Shown here: in pieces, positions 2,095 through 21,660 of the stretch
Numbering within the stretch: the stretch's first letter is position 1
Layout: the number at the start of each line of letters is the position of its first letter
Origin: a virus
Virus record (IMG/VR): IMGVR_UViG_3300032770_000009
Coordinates: 32,001 to 96,000 of that record
Length of the DNA stretch: 64,000 nt
Reading direction: 5' to 3' (one strand)
The notes under the pieces: generated by a model
What the model was told of the DNA's origin: nothing
Database searches by the model: none
What the model saw: the letters and a program-made list of their open reading frames with translations, nothing else
Translations under genes and position numbers: made by a program

Positions 2095-2378
2095 TAACTC
2101 CCCTGTAAAATCTTTTCTGCTATTACAGACATAGTGCAAGAATACTTGCCCTTGCTGCTGTTGTATGAATCTACAATACAAAGCCTGTCTTCGTCTTTAA
2201 TACTGAAATCGTAATCATACCCAAAAAACTCCTCAGCCGCTATGAACGCTTTTCTCTTCATATCATTAAACGTGTCACCATACACATGGACACTTAATCT
2301 TAGTCTCTCAGGCTCTCTAGGTGTACTCGGAATTGAGCTAGGAATGTACCTGTAACTATTAGAACTTAAAAGATCCAT
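2094..2378 (-). CDS. Hypothetical protein
   Basis: ORF track; translationally coupled on both sides. Confidence 0.55.
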   Translation of the reverse strand: MDLLSSNSYRYIPSSIPSTPREPERLRLSVHVYGDTFNDMKRKAFIAAEEFFGYDYDFSIKDEDRLCIVDSYNSSKGKYSCTMSVIAEKILQGS

Positions 2379-2929
2379 TATTTTCCTCCATTAGCTAGAA
2401 TATTTAGTGCTTCGAACATTGCTATTTTTTCTCTCATCCATTTAACTTCTCTAGCATCTGCTAGTGCGTTATGCTTGCTGTCATTTTTTCTGCCGGGATT
2501 ATAACCTAGTCGTTCCATCTCTTGAGCGACATCGTTAGTCCGCTGAACAAACGGCATATCAATCATACGGCCGTAAAGCTGAGCTAGCACAACATGATCA
2601 TATGCGGCAAAGTAAGCCCACAGAGAAGGATTAGCGTATTCGACTACAAAATCTAGAACTTCCTTAGCAATCTCTGAACGGCTCTTAACATTAGCATAAT
2701 CAGGATGACTTTCATCCCATACCGGGAACTTTGGATCTATAGGCTGTGCTAGCGGAAGATAAGGAAGAACGTTAGCTCTAATCCACATATTCTTAGCGGC
2801 GTCCTTGATTAGTTCAAGGTCGTCAACCACAGCATAATATTCCTGATTGTCTTCTCTCACCATACCTATTGAAATAAGCCTTATAGTTTCACCGTTCTCA
2901 AGAAACTCCGTATCATAATATATTTCCAT
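2378..2929 (-). CDS. DEDDh 3'-5' exoribonuclease, RNase AS (Rv2179c)-like
   Basis: YYDTEFLENG..LISIGMVREDN..EYYAV, WAYFAAYDHVVLAQLYGRM and HNALADA motifs. Confidence 0.85.
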   Translation of the reverse strand: MEIYYDTEFLENGETIRLISIGMVREDNQEYYAVVDDLELIKDAAKNMWIRANVLPYLPLAQPIDPKFPVWDESHPDYANVKSRSEIAKEVLDFVVEYANPSLWAYFAAYDHVVLAQLYGRMIDMPFVQRTNDVAQEMERLGYNPGRKNDSKHNALADAREVKWMREKIAMFEALNILANGGK

Positions 2930-3521: not shown

Positions 3522-4451
3522 TTAAGCGGTTGTTACTACGTCAATGAAGCCTGTTGCCTGTCCGTTAGGATCAGGAACACGATTACTGTAGCTAGCTCCT
3601 GCTGCTGCCGGAATAACTAGCATTGAGTATGTGTGGCCAGGTGAAAGACCCCATAGATAACCAACGCCTGAACATGTGTAACCGTAGTGAGGCTGGCCTG
3701 ATGGCGATGTCATACCGTAACCGAATGTTTCGGTTACAACGCAAGAACCATCTGCTGAGTTAACTGGGGGGATATCCCAGCCTACTGTTGCTGTTGAACG
3801 ACCGTCAGTGATGACATGTCCGCCTTCAACGTACGAACGAGTAGAAATCACAGGACTAGTTGTACTTGTGTCATCCCATGTTACAGAACCTTCTACAGGG
3901 TCATTCGTAGTGTTCGTAAACGTTAGTGGTGAGCCGCTAATAGTTGTCGATACTTCAAATGTCGCCGCTGTTACATTCGATGCGGTATTTACATTTGAAT
4001 CTACAACATATAGAGATACGGTTGTGTCTGAAGACGGTAGTACATAGGTGCTTGTATTACCGGGAGTCTGTTCCTGGGGCACGTTATCAAAGTTGTTAGC
4101 TGTTGCATTAGGTGCATTAACAGATAGCCCTGTAGCTGGTGTGTATGTTCCACCAGTTACTAGAGTGTTAACTGCACTAGCAATATCTGCCGCTAGTGTG
4201 GTACCAGTAGCATTTGGATTCTGCTGCTGAACAAACTGCTCTAGATCATAAGTTACGATGGTACCGTTTGATGGTACCGGGCTCTTGTTTGTGACACTCA
4301 GTGTTGACGGTAGCGTGCTACCAATAGGGAATGTAAAGTTAGTGGTTTCTGTAGTTGCGGCATGAGCTGTACTAGCAAAGCCAGCACCCATACCCATAGT
4401 CGCAACAGCGGCAACGCCTACGACTAGTGCTGCGAATTTTGTTCTAAACAT
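3522..4451 (-). CDS. Secreted Thr/Ser-rich beta-rich protein
   Basis: N-terminal signal peptide ending AHA-A; 309 aa. Confidence 0.65.
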   Translation of the reverse strand: MFRTKFAALVVGVAAVATMGMGAGFASTAHAATTETTNFTFPIGSTLPSTLSVTNKSPVPSNGTIVTYDLEQFVQQQNPNATGTTLAADIASAVNTLVTGGTYTPATGLSVNAPNATANNFDNVPQEQTPGNTSTYVLPSSDTTVSLYVVDSNVNTASNVTAATFEVSTTISGSPLTFTNTTNDPVEGSVTWDDTSTTSPVISTRSYVEGGHVITDGRSTATVGWDIPPVNSADGSCVVTETFGYGMTSPSGQPHYGYTCSGVGYLWGLSPGHTYSMLVIPAAAGASYSNRVPDPNGQATGFIDVVTTA

Positions 4452-6607: not shown

Positions 6608-6655
6608 AAACTACCAGACCCACGGGCATCTGTCAAATCCGGCAAACCGGACATT
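6608..6655 (-). promoter_or_regulatory. Sigma70-type promoter with upstream GGACA box
   Basis: TTGACA-N17-TAGTTT on the minus strand; CCGGACATT (plus-strand reading) upstream of the -35. Confidence 0.65.
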
Positions 6656-8287
6656 CTAGACATCCCAGGGCCAACGACCATCTGAAGAATCTTCTATCAT
6701 TGGTATTAGTTTGAATGTAGCATCTGAAAGACCGCCAAGCTGGTACTTACGGTCCTTACCTACAGGAAGATCAGTAACTTTATAGCCTGCAAGATCGAAT
6801 GCATACACGTAAGCACTGCCAAAGTTGAAGTTAGCGACACCATAGCCATAGCCGTAGTAGCCATGGCCAGGGAAAGATTGTCCATCAGTGAAGATAAACA
6901 CTCTCTTGTGCTTATTCGGATCGAAGTGCTTCTGTAGTGCGTCTAGTGTTTGAGTACCATGTCCTACTTCACCGTTACGACGGTTAACTTCCTCCACTAT
7001 CTTAAGCACAGAAGTACCTGGCTTAACGGTTAGCTTCTTAGAAGAAGAAGCGAACATAACGATATCCACGTTACCTGGAGACTTAGCAGCCACAGCAGCA
7101 CCGAATAGAGCCGCTGCACCAGCACGTGACATCTTGCTCTTGTCAGATATAGGGGCATCCATTGAACCAGATGTGTCTACAAGCACCAAAGTTGAACTGT
7201 CGAACACCGGAATATTCTGAGTAGAATATTCTAGTGCCTGCTCAAGTGCCGCATGGTAGATAAGACTATTAGTCTCATTGAACGCAGAAAGGAATCTGAA
7301 CGGGAACTGTCTTGACTTCTCTATAACCTCCTTGTTGGTCAGTTTGTTGACAACAAGATCACGCACAGCAGTAGAAATACCTGCCTGCTCGAAATTGCGA
7401 AGGTTACGGATAAGAGCCATAATACCCATTGAAGGAATAACTGACTCCCACAACTTGTTCTTAGCCACTTTGGTACCGGCTAGAGAAAGAACATCTTCCC
7501 ATGTAAGACCAGCAGCCTTAACACGATCAGAGTCAAGAAGAGCCTTGACATCCTTAGCCGCATCAGCCCTCAATGACTGGTTAGCTGAAATCATAGGCAG
7601 CAAACTTGTGTCAGTATCAGAGCCATAACGCTTGCTGATTATAAACGAGAACAAAGCACCTTGCCATGGCTTAGAAGGCTTAACGTGAGTCAAATTCAAT
7701 ACATCAGAGAACTTAACTGAATATGCATCGGTGTTGTACTTAAGAACACTGTACTCGTTGTACAACTTAAGTACAGAATCAGAAATACCCCTCTTAACAG
7801 GCTTAGGTAGTTTACCAAACTTAGAAAGCCAGTAAGACACAAACTCGCCTGGTTCGTCAGCACGTGAAAGAACTTCAGAAATGATATGGCGATTCATGCC
7901 CTTCATGCCCATTGACGAAAGCAGCTCGTCTTCCGCTACAGCACCCTTGTTGTTAAGGCGAGCATACACAAAGTGAGCCGCACCTACTACAGACGCGGTA
8001 CGGATGTTAGCTTCTGATCTAAGCCAGATCAGAAACTTCATAGTCCATATAGGATCATAAACAGCTAGTGTCTCTACTAGATCGGTGAACCGCTTGTTAC
8101 GGTCATCACCCTTCTCATAGTAGGTCTTCTCACCGTAAAAGAGGTTTGCACCCAGACGGAAAAGCTCTGTCCTTTTGTCAGAAACAGCACCCTGACCGCC
8201 GCCGTAAGTACGAACACCCGGAACTACTGTTGAAGTCATTGGTGAGACTGGGCCACGGTTTACGGTCTTAGTGTTGATCTTTGACAT
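6656..8287 (-). CDS. rsr: Ro60/Rsr ribonucleoprotein (TROVE domain plus C-terminal vWA)
   Basis: TYGGG..ELFRL..FYGEKTYYE, WLRSEANIRT, RADEPGE, TWEDVLS, MALIRNLRNF, SRQFPFRFLSA and vWA MIDAS LVDTSGSM...FTDGQ; ATG at 8287 with GGAGG RBS. Confidence 0.93.
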   Translation of the reverse strand: MSKINTKTVNRGPVSPMTSTVVPGVRTYGGGQGAVSDKRTELFRLGANLFYGEKTYYEKGDDRNKRFTDLVETLAVYDPIWTMKFLIWLRSEANIRTASVVGAAHFVYARLNNKGAVAEDELLSSMGMKGMNRHIISEVLSRADEPGEFVSYWLSKFGKLPKPVKRGISDSVLKLYNEYSVLKYNTDAYSVKFSDVLNLTHVKPSKPWQGALFSFIISKRYGSDTDTSLLPMISANQSLRADAAKDVKALLDSDRVKAAGLTWEDVLSLAGTKVAKNKLWESVIPSMGIMALIRNLRNFEQAGISTAVRDLVVNKLTNKEVIEKSRQFPFRFLSAFNETNSLIYHAALEQALEYSTQNIPVFDSSTLVLVDTSGSMDAPISDKSKMSRAGAAALFGAAVAAKSPGNVDIVMFASSSKKLTVKPGTSVLKIVEEVNRRNGEVGHGTQTLDALQKHFDPNKHKRVFIFTDGQSFPGHGYYGYGYGVANFNFGSAYVYAFDLAGYKVTDLPVGKDRKYQLGGLSDATFKLIPMIEDSSDGRWPWDV

Positions 8288-8307
8288 TTTTACCTCCAAA
8301 AATATAA

Positions 8308-8385
8308 AGCCCCAAGTTTACATTCGCTTAATCATTTGTTGCAGTGGAAGAACACATGATTTCGATAGGTCGTAAACCTGGAGCG
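8308..8385 (-). ncRNA. Structured RNA or leader hairpin immediately 5' of rsr (possible second Y-RNA class)
   Basis: GCUCCAGGUUUAC/GUAAACUUGGGGC terminal stem with G-U pairs and an inner AAUCAU/AUGAUU stem. Confidence 0.4.
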
Positions 8386-8401
8386 GTTTTTATAGAAACT
8401 G

Positions 8402-8531
8402 TTACCTTGAGAATAAGATTAAGTCAGCATTTGGGATTATGAGTCCCAGTTCCCGCCATGGGAACCCGGGATGTGGCCCCGGGTAATAGAGTCGAACTAT
8501 TGAAGTATCTGACTAAAATGCACCAAAGTAA
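8402..8531 (-). ncRNA. Y-RNA-like unit 1: permuted tRNA(CAU) module, order T-acceptor-D-anticodon
   Basis: Scaffold GGUGCA...AUACUUC...UAUUCUC; insert AAUAG-UUCGACU-CUAUU, ACCCGGG/CCCGGGU, UCCC/GGGA, UGGGA-CUCAUAA-UCCCA. Confidence 0.75.
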
Positions 8532-8540
8532 GTTTATAAA

Positions 8541-8649
8541 TCCTGAGAATAATACATAAACAGCAAGGGAGCCATCCCATACGGCAAGGAATCGAACCTT
8601 AGCCCTGCGAATTGTTGGAGCAGAAGTAGCTGTTTATTTTGCACCAGGA
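8541..8649 (-). ncRNA. Y-RNA-like unit 2: T-arm-containing module
   Basis: Scaffold conserved; insert contains AAGG-UUCGAUU-CCUU. Confidence 0.7.
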
Positions 8650-8662
8650 ATATGAAGTTGTG

Positions 8663-8811
8663 TTGCCTAGAGTATACTGCGGTCACAGTATAGTTTCGTA
8701 AAGCTCTACCATTAAGCTACACCGGGAAGAAGCCCCGGCGTCAGGATTCGAACCTGAATCTCTTGATTAACAGTCAAATTGAAGTAACTGTGTACCTTTG
8801 CACCTAGGCAA
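8663..8811 (-). ncRNA. Y-RNA-like unit 3: permuted tRNA-Asn(GUU) module, order anticodon-T-acceptor-D
   Basis: UUGA-CUGUUAA-UCAA, CAGG-UUCGAAU-CCUG, CGCCGGG/CCCGGUG closed by a loop, GCUU-AAUGGUA-GAGC. Confidence 0.8.
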
Positions 8812-8817
8812 AGCTTA

Positions 8818-8980
8818 TTAATCCAGAGTTTAGGGCGACGACAGATGGCTTGTTATTTTATTTCGCGTCTTTCCAGTTAAACGACAGCCGCATGATTGAG
8901 CGGCCGACAGGATTCGAACCTGTATGACGGTCTCCGCATGACATATTTTGAAGTAACTGTAGTCTTTGCACCTGGATTAA
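8818..8980 (-). ncRNA. Y-RNA-like unit 4: YrlA-type T-acceptor-D module with no anticodon arm
   Basis: ACAGG-UUCGAAU-CCUGU, CGGCCGC/GCGGCUG closed by a loop, GUUU-AACUGGAA-AGAC. Confidence 0.8.
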
Positions 8981-8987
8981 GTTGTGT

Positions 8988-9114
8988 AGTCAAGAGTAAG
9001 AAACGATCTCGGAGTTTGAATCTTCAACAGGACTTGAACCTGTAACATTTTCTTTTAAAGAGAAACTATCTGCCATTGATATATGAAGTAACCGAAATCA
9101 AACGCACCTTGACT
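8988..9114 (-). ncRNA. Y-RNA-like unit 5: non-permuted tRNA module with UUA anticodon
   Basis: CUUCA/UGAAG acceptor-like stem, UAUC-AAUGGCA-GAUA, UUUCU-CUUUAAA-AGAAA, ACAGG-UUCAAGU-CCUGU. Confidence 0.75.
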
Positions 9115-9117
9115 TAG

Positions 9118-9190
9118 AGGTCCATGCCGGATTCGAACCGGATAAAGTGAGGTTGCAACTCACCGCCTAAGCCTTTTCAGCCACAGGACC
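9118..9190 (-). tRNA. tRNA-Cys(GCA)
   Basis: Cloverleaf; GTGAG-TTGCAAC-CTCAC; U73. Confidence 0.9.
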
Positions 9191-9195
9191 ATTAA

Positions 9196-9348
9196 ATTCC
9201 TAGAGATTGAGCACCTTACGGGTTAAAATATTTTATTTCACCATCAGCAGTTTAAGAGCTGCTGACTAGGATTTGAACCTAGAATCTCAAAATTGATAGT
9301 TTTGTGTGTTTACCTTTGAAGTAGCCGTTAGGTAGTGCACCTAGGAAT
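9196..9348 (-). ncRNA. Y-RNA-like unit 6: tRNA(AUC) module permuted in the D-loop
   Basis: GGUAAACAC, CAAAA-CUAUCAA-UUUUG, CUAGG-UUCAAAU-CCUAG, UCAGCAG/CUGCUGA closed by a loop, then UGGUG. Confidence 0.78.
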
Positions 9349-9387
9349 GTCCACAACACTAGGAGGTACAGTATGGTGGAATTTACT

Positions 9388-9519
9388 GTTCAGAGAATAA
9401 GTTAGACTCAGTGACGATTTCAACCTCCACACCCGCGTGTGGCGCTCTCTAGCTTGAGCTATAACGCAAGGACTTAACCTTTGCTGCATTAGAAGTAACT
9501 GTGTCTTTTGCACCTGAAC
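9388..9519 (-). ncRNA. Y-RNA-like unit 7: acceptor-D-anticodon-like module apparently opened at the T-arm
   Basis: UAAUGC/GCGUUA stem, UA-GCUC-AAGCUAGA-GAGC D-arm, CCACAC/GUGUGG hairpin. Confidence 0.65.
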
Positions 9520-9522
9520 TAG

Positions 9523-9595
9523 TAGTGATAACTGGATTTGAACCAGTGACCGGCAGGATATGAATCTGCTGCTCTACCAACTGAGCTATACCACT
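9523..9595 (-). tRNA. tRNA-Met or Ile2 (CAU)
   Basis: Cloverleaf; loop TTCATAT. Confidence 0.85.
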
Positions 9596-9635
9596 AGGTG
9601 TGGGACTTGCACCCACTAGTTATCCCAACTCTGTA

Positions 9636-9717
9636 AATCTGGAGTATAAATCGGCTACTGTGTCTTTTGGATAACTATAGCGTTGTTTGAAGTATCAGTG
9701 ACCTTCGCACCCAGATT
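9636..9717 (-). ncRNA. Y-RNA-like unit 8: minimal scaffold
   Basis: AAUCUGGGUGCGAAGG...AUACUUC...UAUACUCCAGAUU with a short insert and no tRNA arm. Confidence 0.7.
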
Positions 9718-9725
9718 AAGATTAC

Positions 9726-9820
9726 TGTTCTAGAATATATAACGCATCACGGTCGGTTTCTACCATGGTGGCTTAAAAGGCTACTGTTTGAAGTAACCGT
9801 AATGCTTTGCACCTAGAACA
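9726..9820 (-). ncRNA. Y-RNA-like unit 9: isolated Lys(UUU)-like anticodon stem-loop
   Basis: Scaffold conserved; insert GUAGC-CUUUUAA-GCCAC (one mismatch). Confidence 0.68.
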
Positions 9821-9823
9821 TAG

Positions 9824-9899
9824 ACGCGGGAGTGAGATTCGAACTCACGTAGAACGGCTTATGAGACCGTGCTGGAACCGAACTCCAGTCTATCCCGCA
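9824..9899 (-). tRNA. tRNA-Met(CAU), initiator-like
   Basis: Cloverleaf; weak 1:72 pair; loop CTCATAA. Confidence 0.8.
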
Positions 9900-9908
9900 G
9901 TGTTTAAA

Positions 9909-9990
9909 ACTCAGAGAATAATTTGAAAACAGCGCATTTACAGACCAATGTGAATAGTGTTTGAAGTAACTGTCTTCTTTGCACCTGAGT
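9909..9990 (-). ncRNA. Y-RNA-like unit 10: minimal scaffold
   Basis: ACUCAGGUGCAAAG...GUUACUUC...UAUUCUCUGAGU. Confidence 0.7.
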
Positions 9991-9998
9991 AGTATTTT

Positions 9999-10056
9999 GG
10001 AATTAACTGGGATCTGATGTGCCGCTTAAGGGATGGGTTGTGCCACTGTTAATTCC
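9999..10056 (-). ncRNA. Stem-loop carrying 2 x GGCAC-N5-AUCCC (copy B)
   Basis: GGAAUUAAC/GUUAAUUCC closing stem; loop almost identical to 4564-4624. Confidence 0.55.
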
Positions 10057-10059
10057 TTG

Positions 10060-10130
10060 TAGCCCTACAGGGACTCGAACCCTGTTTACAAGATTGAAAG
10101 TCTTGTTTCCTACCTATAGAAGATAGGGCC
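10060..10130 (-). tRNA. tRNA-Glu(UUC)
   Basis: Cloverleaf; CAAGA-CTTTCAA-TCTTG. Confidence 0.9.
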
Positions 10131-10197: not shown

Positions 10198-10250
10198 ATC
10201 CTACCAGACCCGCGCCCCTTTGTCAAATCGGGGCGAATCGGACATTTCGG
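10198..10250 (-). promoter_or_regulatory. Sigma70-type promoter plausibly driving tRNA-Glu, the Y-RNA array and rsr
   Basis: TTGACA-N17-TAGGAT; AATCGGACATTTC box upstream. Confidence 0.65.
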
Positions 10251-10403: not shown

Positions 10404-11417
10404 CTAATTAATAAGAAGAAGAGAAGTGCCGCCGATAAGTTTACGGTTCAAAGCAGTAGACTGCACAAAGATAGTATAGTTAGCGTACTGTGTACTAGAT
10501 GGATCTACATCTACTGTGTGATCAGGCAGGCCAAGCAACTGCCTAGCTTGAGGACCAGTGTAGATCTTCCCCCCGAAACCAATAGCGATATTCTTTTGCG
10601 GCTGAATTGTTTCCTTCTTAGTAAGTTGATAGTAAGCTTTACCGATAATAAGCTTCCTTCCAGTGTGGTCGTAGACGAATTCGTCTACTCTCTGGTCAAA
10701 AGGCACCGCTATAAGCTGGTGTGTTCCTGGTGACAAAGCATTAAGAGACAACTTAATGTCCGACTCTGTTACCCTATTAAGACTAAACAGGTTCTTACTG
10801 CTTCTGATACCCATAGACCTGTTAGTCATAAAGGTAGTAGAAGCTTGACGAACAATATGTCCTACTGTTTCAAGTCCCTTAGCAGATGTTGTATCCCAGA
10901 TTATTACGTTTTCTTTAGGGAATCCGTACTTTACAGCATAGTTAACACCTGTCTGGTTAGGTACGAAACAAGCATAAGACCAGTTTCCCTTGCCGTCAAG
11001 GACAGAAAAGTTTGACTTTAGAGTCAATGCACTGTGTGAAGAACTGTTTTCGTCACCATCAGTAATCACGTACATTAGGAAAGCGTGCTCACCGTATAGT
11101 GTAGCGGTCTTATCAAGGTCTTCCATTGCCTTAATGGTGGCGTCAATAAGAGCTGTACCACCAGAAGCACGGTACATTCCCTTAATAGACTGCATTCTCA
11201 GCACATCCATATCGTATGCAAGGCACTTGATATGATTGTATCCGGAAGAGAATGTGTATACAGTAACTCTTGTTTCCTGTTCCTGAGCTATAGATTGCTC
11301 AGCTAAGTGCTTTACTGTGTCATCTACTACACTAACTACAGTATTTGTTAAGTAATTCATGCTGCCTGATGCGTCTATAACTAAGACAACATGGTTAATA
11401 AAGTTTTTAAGTGCCAA
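10404..11417 (-). CDS. von Willebrand factor A domain protein
   Basis: VVLVIDASGSM MIDAS, GGTALIDA and VITDGDENSS; extra C-terminal domain. Confidence 0.85.
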   Translation of the reverse strand: MALKNFINHVVLVIDASGSMNYLTNTVVSVVDDTVKHLAEQSIAQEQETRVTVYTFSSGYNHIKCLAYDMDVLRMQSIKGMYRASGGTALIDATIKAMEDLDKTATLYGEHAFLMYVITDGDENSSSHSALTLKSNFSVLDGKGNWSYACFVPNQTGVNYAVKYGFPKENVIIWDTTSAKGLETVGHIVRQASTTFMTNRSMGIRSSKNLFSLNRVTESDIKLSLNALSPGTHQLIAVPFDQRVDEFVYDHTGRKLIIGKAYYQLTKKETIQPQKNIAIGFGGKIYTGPQARQLLGLPDHTVDVDPSSTQYANYTIFVQSTALNRKLIGGTSLLLIN

Positions 11418-13888: not shown

Positions 13889-13940
13889 AGCCTACCAGAC
13901 CCAACGTCCGATGTCAAATCGGACATTCAGGACAAACCGG
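13889..13940 (-). promoter_or_regulatory. Sigma70-type promoter with GGACA repeats
   Basis: TTGACA-N17-TAGGCT; CGGACATTCAGGACA upstream. Confidence 0.65.
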
Positions 13941-16822: not shown

Positions 16823-16895
16823 TGAGTCCCGTGGGATTTGAACCCACAACTCCCAACTTAAAAGGATGGTACTCTGCCAATTGAGTTAGAGACTC
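16823..16895 (-). tRNA. tRNA-Lys(UUU)
   Basis: Cloverleaf; loop CTTTTAA. Confidence 0.85.
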
Positions 16896-17218
16896 ATTTT
16901 CCCTGAGCCGTACTGATTTTTCCAACCTCGAATAGCCAACTGCTCAAGGTTATCGGCTTTCGATTTCTGAGTATGATGAACTGCGCATAGAAGTTGGCAC
17001 TTTTCAAGTTCAGCTAGAAATCTTACTTTAGCTATAGACCACATTTTGTTGACAGGAACCTCTTTGTAAACCCAGTCTATGTGGTCTATTTGCAAGTTTT
17101 CCGTTGTTTCACATATCGCACACACTCCACCTAGCAGTTTTTTAGCAAGAGCCATTCGCTCCGCATAGCGTCTTTGCATGTATGTATTCATGTAATTGTT
17201 ATAGTCTTTAGAAGGCAT
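16886..17218 (-). CDS. HNH endonuclease
   Basis: GGVCAIC..NLQIDHID..ELEKCQLLCAVHH; 3' end overlaps tRNA-Lys. Confidence 0.85.
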   Translation of the reverse strand: MPSKDYNNYMNTYMQRRYAERMALAKKLLGGVCAICETTENLQIDHIDWVYKEVPVNKMWSIAKVRFLAELEKCQLLCAVHHTQKSKADNLEQLAIRGWKNQYGSGKMSL

Positions 17219-21195: not shown

Positions 21196-21660
21196 CTAAA
21201 AGTCGATCCATGGTGTGCCCACAGCGAAAGTAGGTATACCGAGGGACTGCCACATTCTCAGAACTTGCGGTCTGTCGTCTATAGCGAACTGAATATCGTA
21301 TTTCGGTTCTATATGATTACGGTAAATTTCTTCCTTCACTATGTAGTCTTTCCTGTAATCAGGCAGACCGTTAGCCAGCCAGTCAGGACGCATAAACAGC
21401 TCATTGTCGTAAGGCGTGAAAACATTCTTACCGAGCCATTCCTTTGTGTCGTCACGGCTTCTCTCCGGTCTTCCTGATACAAAGACGCAGGTAACGTTAT
21501 CTGGTTCTGAAGGAGACAGAATAAGACTAGTTACGACATGGATGACATGAGGATTAGGTTTGTCAAGCATAACTTTATCGTAATCGAGATGTCCCCTGAT
21601 GCCTTCGTGGTCCGCCACTGTGCCATCTATATCACATATGAATGCTTTTATTTTATTCAT
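21196..21660 (-). CDS. Polynucleotide kinase/phosphatase (PseT)-type 3'-phosphatase HAD domain, stand-alone
   Basis: AFICDIDGTVA, FVSGRPE, LFMR, D..VKEEIY, FAIDDRPQVLRMW. Confidence 0.85.
   Translation of the reverse strand: MNKIKAFICDIDGTVADHEGIRGHLDYDKVMLDKPNPHVIHVVTSLILSPSEPDNVTCVFVSGRPERSRDDTKEWLGKNVFTPYDNELFMRPDWLANGLPDYRKDYIVKEEIYRNHIEPKYDIQFAIDDRPQVLRMWQSLGIPTFAVGTPWIDF

Follow-up and report, generated by a model that had tools for sequence, protein, structure and literature searches.

Results

Ten units upstream of a phage Ro60 gene

The 64-kb window analysed here spans bases 32001-96000 of an IMG/VR virus record of 116,568 bp, the genome (~117 kb) of an uncultured phage, which is complete according to CheckV. 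On the minus strand of the window lies a Ro60 gene, and upstream of it on the same strand sits an array of ten units interleaved with four tRNA genes (Glu, Met, Met and Cys). Judged by their sequence, the units are Y RNAs of a subtype related to YrlA, in which one scaffold carries different inserts. They were scored with two covariance models: R1 was built from the ten window units with 16 base pairs, its matches being counted at E ≤ 0.01, and R2 was built from 150 R1 matches in phages and contains no window sequence. The gene and the units are as follows, with positions numbered within the window.

9909..9990 (R1: 9904-9995), minus strand: U1, R1 74.9 bits, R2 50.1 bits
9726..9820 (R1: 9723-9823), minus strand: U2, R1 69.0 bits, R2 42.0 bits
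9636..9717 (R1: 9632-9721), minus strand: U3, R1 69.2 bits, R2 53.7 bits
9388..9519 (R1: 9383-9524), minus strand: U4, matched by R1 and R2
9196..9348 (R1: 9193-9351), minus strand: U5, matched by R1 and R2
8988..9114 (R1: 8984-9118), minus strand: U6, matched by R1 and R2
8818..8980 (R1: 8816-8982), minus strand: U7, best score in both models (R1 101.3 bits, R2 76.3 bits)
8663..8811 (R1: 8660-8814), minus strand: U8, matched by R1 and R2
8541..8649 (R1: 8535-8655), minus strand: U9, matched by R1 and R2
8402..8531 (R1: 8399-8534), minus strand: U10, matched by R1 and R2
6656..8287, minus strand: Ro60 gene, 543 amino acids, TROVE ring and vWA domain (Pfam TROVE E 1.2e-20)

A sequence-only reading of this DNA had placed ten minus-strand units here, with a constant scaffold and different inserts, between a promoter at 10198-10226 and a Ro60/TROVE gene and interleaved with real tRNAs. 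These claims held. All ten units are present with R1 boundaries within 6 bases of those proposed, the constant scaffold is borne out by motif counts, folds and both models, the gene matches TROVE and also carries a vWA domain, and the promoter-like site and four tRNA genes, described below, are in place. Within the window R1 found the ten units only (69-101 bits; the next match reached 13 bits), and R2 found all ten at 39-76 bits and nothing further at E ≤ 1. The regular expression GGTGC[AG].{5,20}[TC][AT]CTTC occurs ten times on the minus strand of the window, always within 8502-9985, and never on the plus strand. A stricter scaffold pattern gave 0 forward and 10 reverse matches in the whole genome, all in the array, and a control pattern read backwards gave none in either direction.

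The order of elements common to the ten units is stem1, GGUGCR, stem2, YUACUUC, variable insert, stem2', an AU-rich linker, CUC and stem1'. The constant part, which we call the docking module, starts from a terminal stem of 6-9 bp between the 5' and 3' ends and continues into an asymmetric internal loop whose 5' strand reads UGCRAA and whose AU-rich 3' strand ends in CUC, so that the conserved 5' strand of the module is (G)GUGCRAA. A second stem of 8-9 bp follows and is capped by the invariant UACUUC (junction YUACUUC). In this phage, which is richer in AT, the 5' motif reads GGUGCA in eight of the ten units, and most relatives read GCG where those eight read GCA; four units have GGUGCAAAG, and U3 alone has GGUGCGAAG. 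We rejected a possible GGUG-UACU pairing, since the variants GAUG and GAAG keep UACUUC unchanged and the pairing is thus without covariation.

Covariation of the scaffold stems

Both scaffold stems covary strongly. The sequence-only reading had quoted the pairs GCCUAG/CUAGGC, AAUCCAG/CUGGAUU and ACUCAG/CUGAGU as examples of covariation between units; the quoted pairs are correct, and the covariation was recovered from alignments of both kinds. RNAalifold was run on the ten units as aligned by MAFFT alone, with no fitting to a structure. It predicted both helices with compensatory changes at 12 of the 16 pairs, the terminal stem being closed by an invariant G-C and a G-U pair and the inner stem comprising 8 pairs. 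In the R1-fitted alignment of the window units, which includes one spurious eleventh row (13 bits), 90.3% of the cells were paired, compared with 27-44% when the partner was slid by 1 to 3 columns. Double changes were seen in 13 of the 16 pairs of this alignment, and none of 500 shuffles matched the observed score. The 150 phage matches behaved in the same way, with 92.1% of cells paired (30-52% with the partner slid), 654 double-change cells (70-175 with the partner slid) and a covariation score of 0.708 versus <0.1, which again 0 of 500 shuffles matched. Among 150 bacterial matches, 91.1% of cells were paired, compared with 32-54% after sliding.

Association of the scaffold with Ro60

Both models were run on 83 phage loci (80 from IMG/VR and three from cultured phages) and on loci from 80 bacterial genomes, all Actinomycetota by title, and R2 also on 44 metagenome contigs. 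With R1, the phage loci yielded 180 matches and the 80 actinobacterial loci 127, all on the Ro60 strand and mostly ≤2 kb upstream of Ro60, with downstream positions in a few phage loci. R2 gave 275 phage, 176 bacterial and 56 metagenome matches, the last in 19 loci, and 507 of these 507 lie on the Ro60 strand, which upholds the earlier description of the units as Y-RNA-like and tied to Ro60. The scaffold adjoins Ro60 in 80 of the 83 phage loci, in the 80 actinobacterial loci and in 19 metagenome loci; the bacterial loci have it ahead of Ro60 with no tRNA genes between the units. The family consensus is GGUGCG.AGG..GG.UACUUC...CUCGGG.

The sequence-only reading had also proposed a covariance-model search of phage genomes for co-occurrence with TROVE genes. 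We scanned a bare 14-base pattern over IMG/VR irrespective of Ro60 and fetched 80 loci. R2 confirmed units in 11 of these; the other 69 had no model match and are mostly chance occurrences. Ro60 lies directly downstream on the same strand in 10 of the 11 confirmed loci.

Three Micromonosporaceae contigs of the bacterial set (L096, L098 and L127) carry 14 to 23 tightly packed tRNA genes in bases 1-2500, before the Ro60 locus. These loci look like prophages or tRNA-array islands of phage-like design.

Relation to YrlA and other Y RNAs

In the available text of Chen et al. (PMC4201824), YrlA is defined by a location ≤4 kb from a Ro60 ortholog on the same strand, by a 5' motif GNCGAAN0-1G resembling the Ro60-contacted vertebrate GGUCCGA, by YUAY at the opening of the variable module, and by a tRNA-like domain in the order V, T, acceptor-like stem, D. 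The window units lie 115 to ~1,700 bases upstream of the Ro60 start on its own strand, well inside that distance, and they show the feature by which a Y RNA is recognised, a stem of the 5' and 3' ends with a conserved 5' strand, here GGUGCRAA. This strand aligns with the GG(C/U)CGAA of the YrlA seed, which the available alignment of Chen et al. (PMC4201824) gives as GG(C/U)CGAA-G..GGUUAC in Gordonia, Streptosporangium and mycobacteriophage ET08, and it is one base off the vertebrate GGUCCGA. Its alignment indicates that the position is clearly homologous to the YrlA 5' motif, a variant of that motif and not its absence. YUAY opens the module literally in eight of the ten units (UUAC in six, CUAC in two), and U3 and U10 read AUAC. 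The order V-T-acceptor-D is full in U8 and has a degenerate D arm in U5 and U7; U4, U6, U9 and U10 have other layouts, and U1-U3 have none.

A comparison with the YrlA model, likewise proposed by the sequence-only reading, bore fruit in part. U8 (8700-8764) matches model positions 24-84 of Rfam RF02553, but with 26.9 bits it stays far below the cut-off of 69. A chromosomal unit of a member of the Streptomycetaceae with the canonical layout matches the same positions 24-84 with 34.7 bits. None of the 28 related loci scanned reaches the cut-off, nor does any site in the whole phage genome. Because the window units and these 28 loci all fall below it, we conclude that the Rfam YrlA model misses a whole subtype.

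One of the closest known systems is that of Mycobacterium smegmatis, where, according to the available text, YrlA and YrlB come from one precursor, are stable and are bound by and co-precipitate with Rsr (PMC4201824). Like these two RNAs, the window units stand directly upstream of Ro60 (rsr) on the same strand, include long tRNA-like RNAs with a 7-bp acceptor-like stem and shorter T-arm-only RNAs, and have a CGAA-type 5' motif followed by GGUUAC in M. smegmatis (PMC4201824). As far as the available description goes, they differ in that M. smegmatis has two RNAs instead of ten, the motif GNCGAA instead of GGUGCRAA, and no interleaved tRNAs (PMC4201824). Rsr binding and RNase P cleavage have been demonstrated there, according to the same text (PMC4201824), and are predicted for the window units.

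Like YrlA of Salmonella Typhimurium (RF02553), U8 mimics a permuted tRNA and combines a T arm with a closed acceptor-like stem and a D arm, but unlike Salmonella YrlA it leaves the scaffold halves of RF02553 unmatched. The Salmonella locus belongs to an rsr-rtcBA repair operon, whereas RtcB was not found in the genome of the window phage. Yrl1 and Yrl2 of Thermus phage phiLo, as described in the available part of PMC12135203, also lie upstream of a phage Ro60 and have a 5'-3' stem and an internal loop with CGAA; they are two in number, and no tRNA-like cargo is described in that part (PMC12135203). Table S2 of Chen et al. lists 22 phages with YrlA within ~2 kb of Ro60 on the same strand, as in the window (PMC4201824). 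In that table each phage has one YrlA except Caulobacter phage CcrColossus, which has three, compared with ten in the window, and neither a ten-unit array nor varied cargo is reported there (PMC4201824). A tblastn search of the phage collection had no mycobacteriophage of Chen's list among the matches listed.

Among cultured phages, Streptomyces phages LuckySocke and pSt2308 and Gordonia phage Rabbitrun carry unannotated units with the same scaffold before a 'Ro-like RNA binding protein', within a tRNA array. They differ from the window phage in having 4-5 units by eye (3-4 by R2) and the motif GAUGCG(U/A)AG. In LuckySocke (L089), the tRNA-Ser(gct) of the GenBank record (gene 36, locus 3774-3847) falls within an R2 unit at 3765-3918 and is probably a misannotated tRNA mimic.

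Cargo of the variable inserts

The inserts were classified from single-unit folds, with strict rules for the T arm and the acceptor-like stem. The sequence-only reading had described the cargo as tRNA-derived. That description applies to six or seven inserts, which carry tRNA parts in several arrangements, and fails for three short ones. By the strict rule a T arm is present in six of the ten units and a closed 7-bp acceptor-like stem in four; two inserts have a D arm, and one has a whole tRNA-like fold.

The inserts of U1-U3 are 28-39 nucleotides (nt) long (U1 29, U2 39), nearly unstructured and without a tRNA part. In U4, a hairpin whose loop is loosely T-like is accompanied by a D arm and by a 6-bp hairpin with AGGUU after it. 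U5 combines an anticodon-like (V) hairpin with a T arm and a closed 7-bp acceptor-like stem; it also has an AU hairpin, its D arm is degenerate, and it gives a partial tRNA match of 24.8 bits. U7 has the same series of V hairpin, T arm and closed 7-bp acceptor-like stem, ending in a D-like hairpin (degenerate D arm), and U8 has V hairpin, T arm, acceptor-like stem and a good D arm, which is the canonical YrlA layout. The T arm of U9 stands between two small hairpins with no D arm. In U10 the T arm comes first and is followed by a 7-bp acceptor-like stem whose loop starts with GCCA, then by a hairpin and an anticodon-like hairpin with the loop CUCAUAA.

In U6 the scaffold surrounds a whole, unpermuted tRNA-like fold with the anticodon-like loop CUUUAAA, and a 5-bp acceptor stem is formed with CUUCA of the UACUUC motif. 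ARAGORN calls a 'tRNA-Stop(tta)' at 9018-9090, inside U6, as its fifth call in the array stretch. The core scores 50.8 bits against RF00005 (cut-off 29), over model positions 3-68 only; its two top acceptor pairs are U-U and A-A, both ends continue into the scaffold, and there is no CCA. We considered whether U6 might be a working ochre suppressor, which is unlikely given its mismatched top acceptor pairs. TAA is the commonest stop of long open reading frames (41 of 81), and TAA read-through opens frames no more than TAG or TGA read-through does, which gives no sign of recoding.

A crude regular-expression count over the 275 phage units gave 75 with T and D arms, 78 with a T arm only, 8 with a D arm only and 114 with neither. 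NCCA stands at the tRNA position after 11 of 116 closed acceptor-like stems in the phage units, compared with 1-3 occurrences at neighbouring offsets. Several units show 7-nt anticodon-like loops. The sequence-only reading had suggested, as possible roles, decoys or inhibitors of host anticodon nucleases and tRNA-targeting toxins, or tethers for tRNA repair or decay enzymes. The loops vary between relatives, which speaks against fixed decoy targets.

Array size and conservation

The sequence-only reading had stated that a locus usually has one to a few Y RNAs and had known of no described array as diversified as this one. Such arrays are not exceptional, however, and are the rule in this lineage. 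Counted with R2 at E ≤ 5e-4, the 83 phage loci comprise 3 with no unit, 2 with one, 21 with two, 27 with three, 13 with four, 8 with five, 6 with six, 2 with seven and 1 with eight units, giving a median of 3 and a maximum of 8 (L020). The three loci without units (L011, L038 and L073) begin ≤~125 bases from the Ro60 match and hence offer no upstream DNA. Bacterial loci reach 4 units (L099 and L123). The ten units of the window form the largest array among the ~180 loci examined. Beyond the three YrlAs of CcrColossus and the two RNAs of phiLo, a full-text literature search, which did not cover subscription journals, listed no paper on larger phage arrays. The locus thus belongs to an already known kind, Y RNAs encoded beside Ro60, and what is new here is the size of ten units, a scaffold subtype missed by Rfam and the range of cargo layouts.

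Three phage loci allow the array to be compared unit by unit. The Ro60 proteins of L020, L024 and L009 are 46-48% identical to that of the window, and the gene order is the same: tRNA-Glu(ttc), unit, tRNA-Met, units, tRNA-Cys, units, Ro60. Counterparts of U4 are found at L020:4448, L024:4898 and L009:5387, where UAGCUCA..AGAGCGCC is invariant and the hairpin covaries. The counterpart of U6 (L020:5106-5254) holds a tRNA-like fold that scores 63.4 bits across the full model; its acceptor stem has 7 bp, and its loop reads CUGUAAA where the window has CUUUAAA. U7 corresponds to L020:5411, U8 to L024:5527 and L009:5614, U9 to L024:5262, and U10 to L020:5708 and L009:5200. Because the cargo types recur in these relatives, the array is old and maintained and not the product of a recent burst of duplication; and because gene order and cargo types are common to phages whose Ro60 proteins are only 46-48% identical, selection seems to act on each unit.

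Probable transcription unit and Ro60 gene

The array lies in a tRNA-rich region, with 33 ARAGORN calls in the window. The tRNA genes among the units and the promoter-like sites are as follows.

10198..10226, minus strand: promoter-like site TTGACA-17-TAGGAT with TG, 10 of 12 matches
10059..10130, minus strand: tRNA-Glu(ttc), ARAGORN, Rfam tRNA model 58.8 bits, first gene of the transcription unit
9823..9899, minus strand: tRNA-Met(cat), ARAGORN only, below the Rfam tRNA cut-off, sole clan match tRNA-Sec at 24.4 bits
9522..9595, minus strand: tRNA-Met(cat), ARAGORN, Rfam tRNA model 65.6 bits
9119..9190, minus strand: tRNA-Cys(gca), ARAGORN, weak on the Rfam tRNA model at 34.8 bits
8288..8401, minus strand: leader of the Ro60 gene; a long hairpin (-28.2 kcal/mol) is predicted to enclose its GGAGG ribosome site
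6611-6636, 10201-10226 and 13892-13917, minus strand: exact copies of TTGACA-N10-GGTCTGGTAG (motif scan)
18787, 20982, 23049 and 46696, minus strand: inexact copies of this motif with 1-3 mismatches (motif scan)

A phage-wide motif, TTGACA-N10-GGTCTGGTAG, includes the promoter-like site at 10226-10198; the window holds 7 copies of it, every one on the minus strand, against 0.53 expected. The motif probably marks early or middle transcription units of the tRNA region. An exact copy at 6636-6611 lies directly past the Ro60 stop codon and is the predicted start of the next transcription unit. No terminator-like site was found on the minus strand between the promoter copies at 10226 and 6611. Since the motif stands at both ends with no such site between, the minus strand from 10226 to 6656 is probably one transcription unit of four tRNAs, ten Y RNAs and Ro60.

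The spacer between tRNA-Glu and U1 (9991-10058, minus strand, ~68 bases) contains a hairpin with a 9-bp stem, GGAAUUAAC/GUUAAUUCC. We rejected it as an eleventh unit, as it is without both scaffold motifs and was missed by R1 and R2; it may represent the remains of a unit or serve as a processing signal. A solitary hairpin resembling a T arm, GUGGG UGCAAGU CCCAC (9596-9620, minus strand), stands immediately 5' of a tRNA-Met. Together with the D arm of the adjoining tRNA-Met it gives a weak YrlA match of 21.9 bits, which we judged false.

The Ro60 protein matches PHROG 850 'RNA-binding protein' at E 2.7e-41 and the Ro60 structures 9L5Y and 9KOP of Thermus phage phiLo at E 3e-28. The hairpin over GGAGG in its leader, predicted by a single-sequence fold, could control translation. 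Among 8,000 scored candidates, 3,032 relatives were found at E ≤ 1e-10, and proteins 63-75% identical to the window Ro60 exist. Single-protein scans with the window Ro60 gave no match among viral contigs and metagenome contigs, and an alignment-based scan of metagenomes returned only relatives of ≤49% identity.

Discussion

We consider it likely that the locus is one transcription unit encoding ten Y RNAs that share a Ro60 docking module and differ in their effector modules. The mechanism is inferred from the studied Y RNAs of Deinococcus radiodurans, Salmonella Typhimurium, M. smegmatis and phage phiLo. By analogy with these, RNase P and 3' processing enzymes would cleave the precursor at the tRNAs, trimming to the stems would follow, and Ro60 would bind the docking module of each unit through the conserved loop and the stems. 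From the YUACUUC junction of each unit a different effector module would emerge, the proposed set consisting of a canonical permuted tRNA mimic of the YrlA type, T-arm-only forms, a D arm with a hairpin, a whole tRNA-like fold and three short loops. Distinct Ro60 particles might then engage different partners during infection, for example host PNPase or tRNA-binding enzymes. For phiLo, the available part of the report describes a complex of Ro60 with a Y-like RNA and host PNPase, and binding has been shown (PMC12135203). In a Listeria phage, according to the available part of another study, three RNAs of very high abundance are found ≤2 kb upstream of an Rsr-like gene.

Several observations weigh against this reading. 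The literal GNCGAAN0-1G occurs in none of the ten units, all of which have U in place of its first G, and only U3 has GCGAAG; no unit reaches the 69-bit cut-off of Rfam YrlA RF02553, the best standing at 26.9 bits. A search of sequencing runs for array DNA returned one DNA run, possibly from the source sample, and no RNA run. One confirmed unit (L253:2957-3033, minus strand, 49.4 bits) lies in a 59.9-kb, 78%-complete viral contig with no TROVE match, and is a possible orphan Y RNA. As to the statistics, most loci were picked for holding Ro60, so the tallies of strand and position are conditional on that; the pattern-first search rests on 11 loci only; R2, being derived from R1 matches, is only partly independent of it; the E-values of both models are rough; and the large covariation alignments were fitted to the model.

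An extension of the docking-module reading would treat the scaffold as a portable Ro60 handle with changeable mimics of tRNA parts and the ten-unit set as a multi-target device for counter-defence or RNA turnover, its Ro60 particles intercepting or recruiting defence nucleases, RNase P, a CCA-adding enzyme or PNPase simultaneously. The conservation of cargo in distant relatives and the NCCA subset are compatible with this, as is the activity against a defence system that the available part of a preprint reports for the Ro60-like gp130 of phage Bas63; we nevertheless regard the proposal as rather unlikely. If the units instead acted as free tRNA mimics without Ro60, as sponges or decoys for tRNA-cleaving defence nucleases or tRNA-modifying enzymes with the scaffold as a stabilising clamp, this would agree with the T arms in six of ten units, the acceptor-like stems in four and the 7-nt anticodon-like loops in several, and the unit in the L253 contig without a TROVE gene would fit as well. 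What makes such free mimics improbable is the company that the scaffold keeps: in loci that hold Ro60, all 507 matches lie on the Ro60 strand and adjoin the gene, and Ro60 was present in 10 of the 11 loci found through the pattern. Moreover, the 5' motif aligns as a homologue of the strand that Ro60 contacts in studied Y RNAs, relatives differ in their anticodon-like loops, and three units have no tRNA part at all.

The tight packing of the units among tRNAs in one apparent transcription unit might also suggest that they are cis-acting operon parts, that is, processing or insulator structures or elements of Ro60 leader control, and not stable RNAs acting in trans; the Ro60 leader may itself fold over its own ribosome site. 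We hold this to be very improbable, since up to ten different copies with covarying, cargo-specific structure are hard to explain as spacers, since bacteria have the scaffold before Ro60 with no tRNAs between units, and since the M. smegmatis counterparts, as the available text has it, are stable and co-precipitate with Rsr (PMC4201824). It is equally hard to credit that U6 and its L020 counterpart are precursors of working tRNAs whose leader and trailer pair to form a Ro60 handle that gates or chaperones their release. Their tRNA-model scores (50.8 bits, and 63.4 bits with a 7-bp acceptor stem) speak for it, but the top two acceptor pairs of U6 are mismatched with no CCA after them, and U6 would read UAA, the commonest stop of long open reading frames (41 of 81), with no sign of recoding. 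That the units are decayed tRNA genes or functionless selfish repeats is scarcely credible. The region is rich in tRNAs, with its 33 ARAGORN calls, and the units do hold tRNA fragments; the scaffold, however, is not a tRNA part, it covaries, its place beside Ro60 is conserved in both phages and Actinomycetota, and phages with Ro60 <50% identical retain the cargo types.

The docking-module reading bears on several wider matters. The roles of bacterial and phage Y RNAs are still poorly understood. Phage Ro60 genes are usually accompanied by several Y RNAs, which would combine one docking module with different effector modules, and a set of ten offers a natural experiment on the purpose of the effector modules. 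Should these modules act on different host factors, the array would account for the retention of Ro60 in phage tRNA clusters. Current annotation misses the subtype, and in at least one phage record of GenBank part of a unit is entered as a tRNA. The survey supplies a working covariance model for the subtype, and the cultured Streptomyces and Gordonia phages that carry the system are open to testing.

Neighbouring genes

No member of the RNA ligase (PF09414), RtcB or CCA-adding enzyme families was found in the 116,568-bp genome. The following genes lie around the array.

10404-11417, minus strand: 337-amino-acid vWA-domain protein (PHROG 26613 E 6e-94; Pfam VWA), just upstream of the array promoter
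16886-17218, minus strand: HNH endonuclease gene, within the tRNA cluster
21196-21660, minus strand: polynucleotide-kinase-like gene (PHROG 505 E 2.3e-41), at the far end of the tRNA region
2378-2929, minus strand: RNase H gene, further downstream

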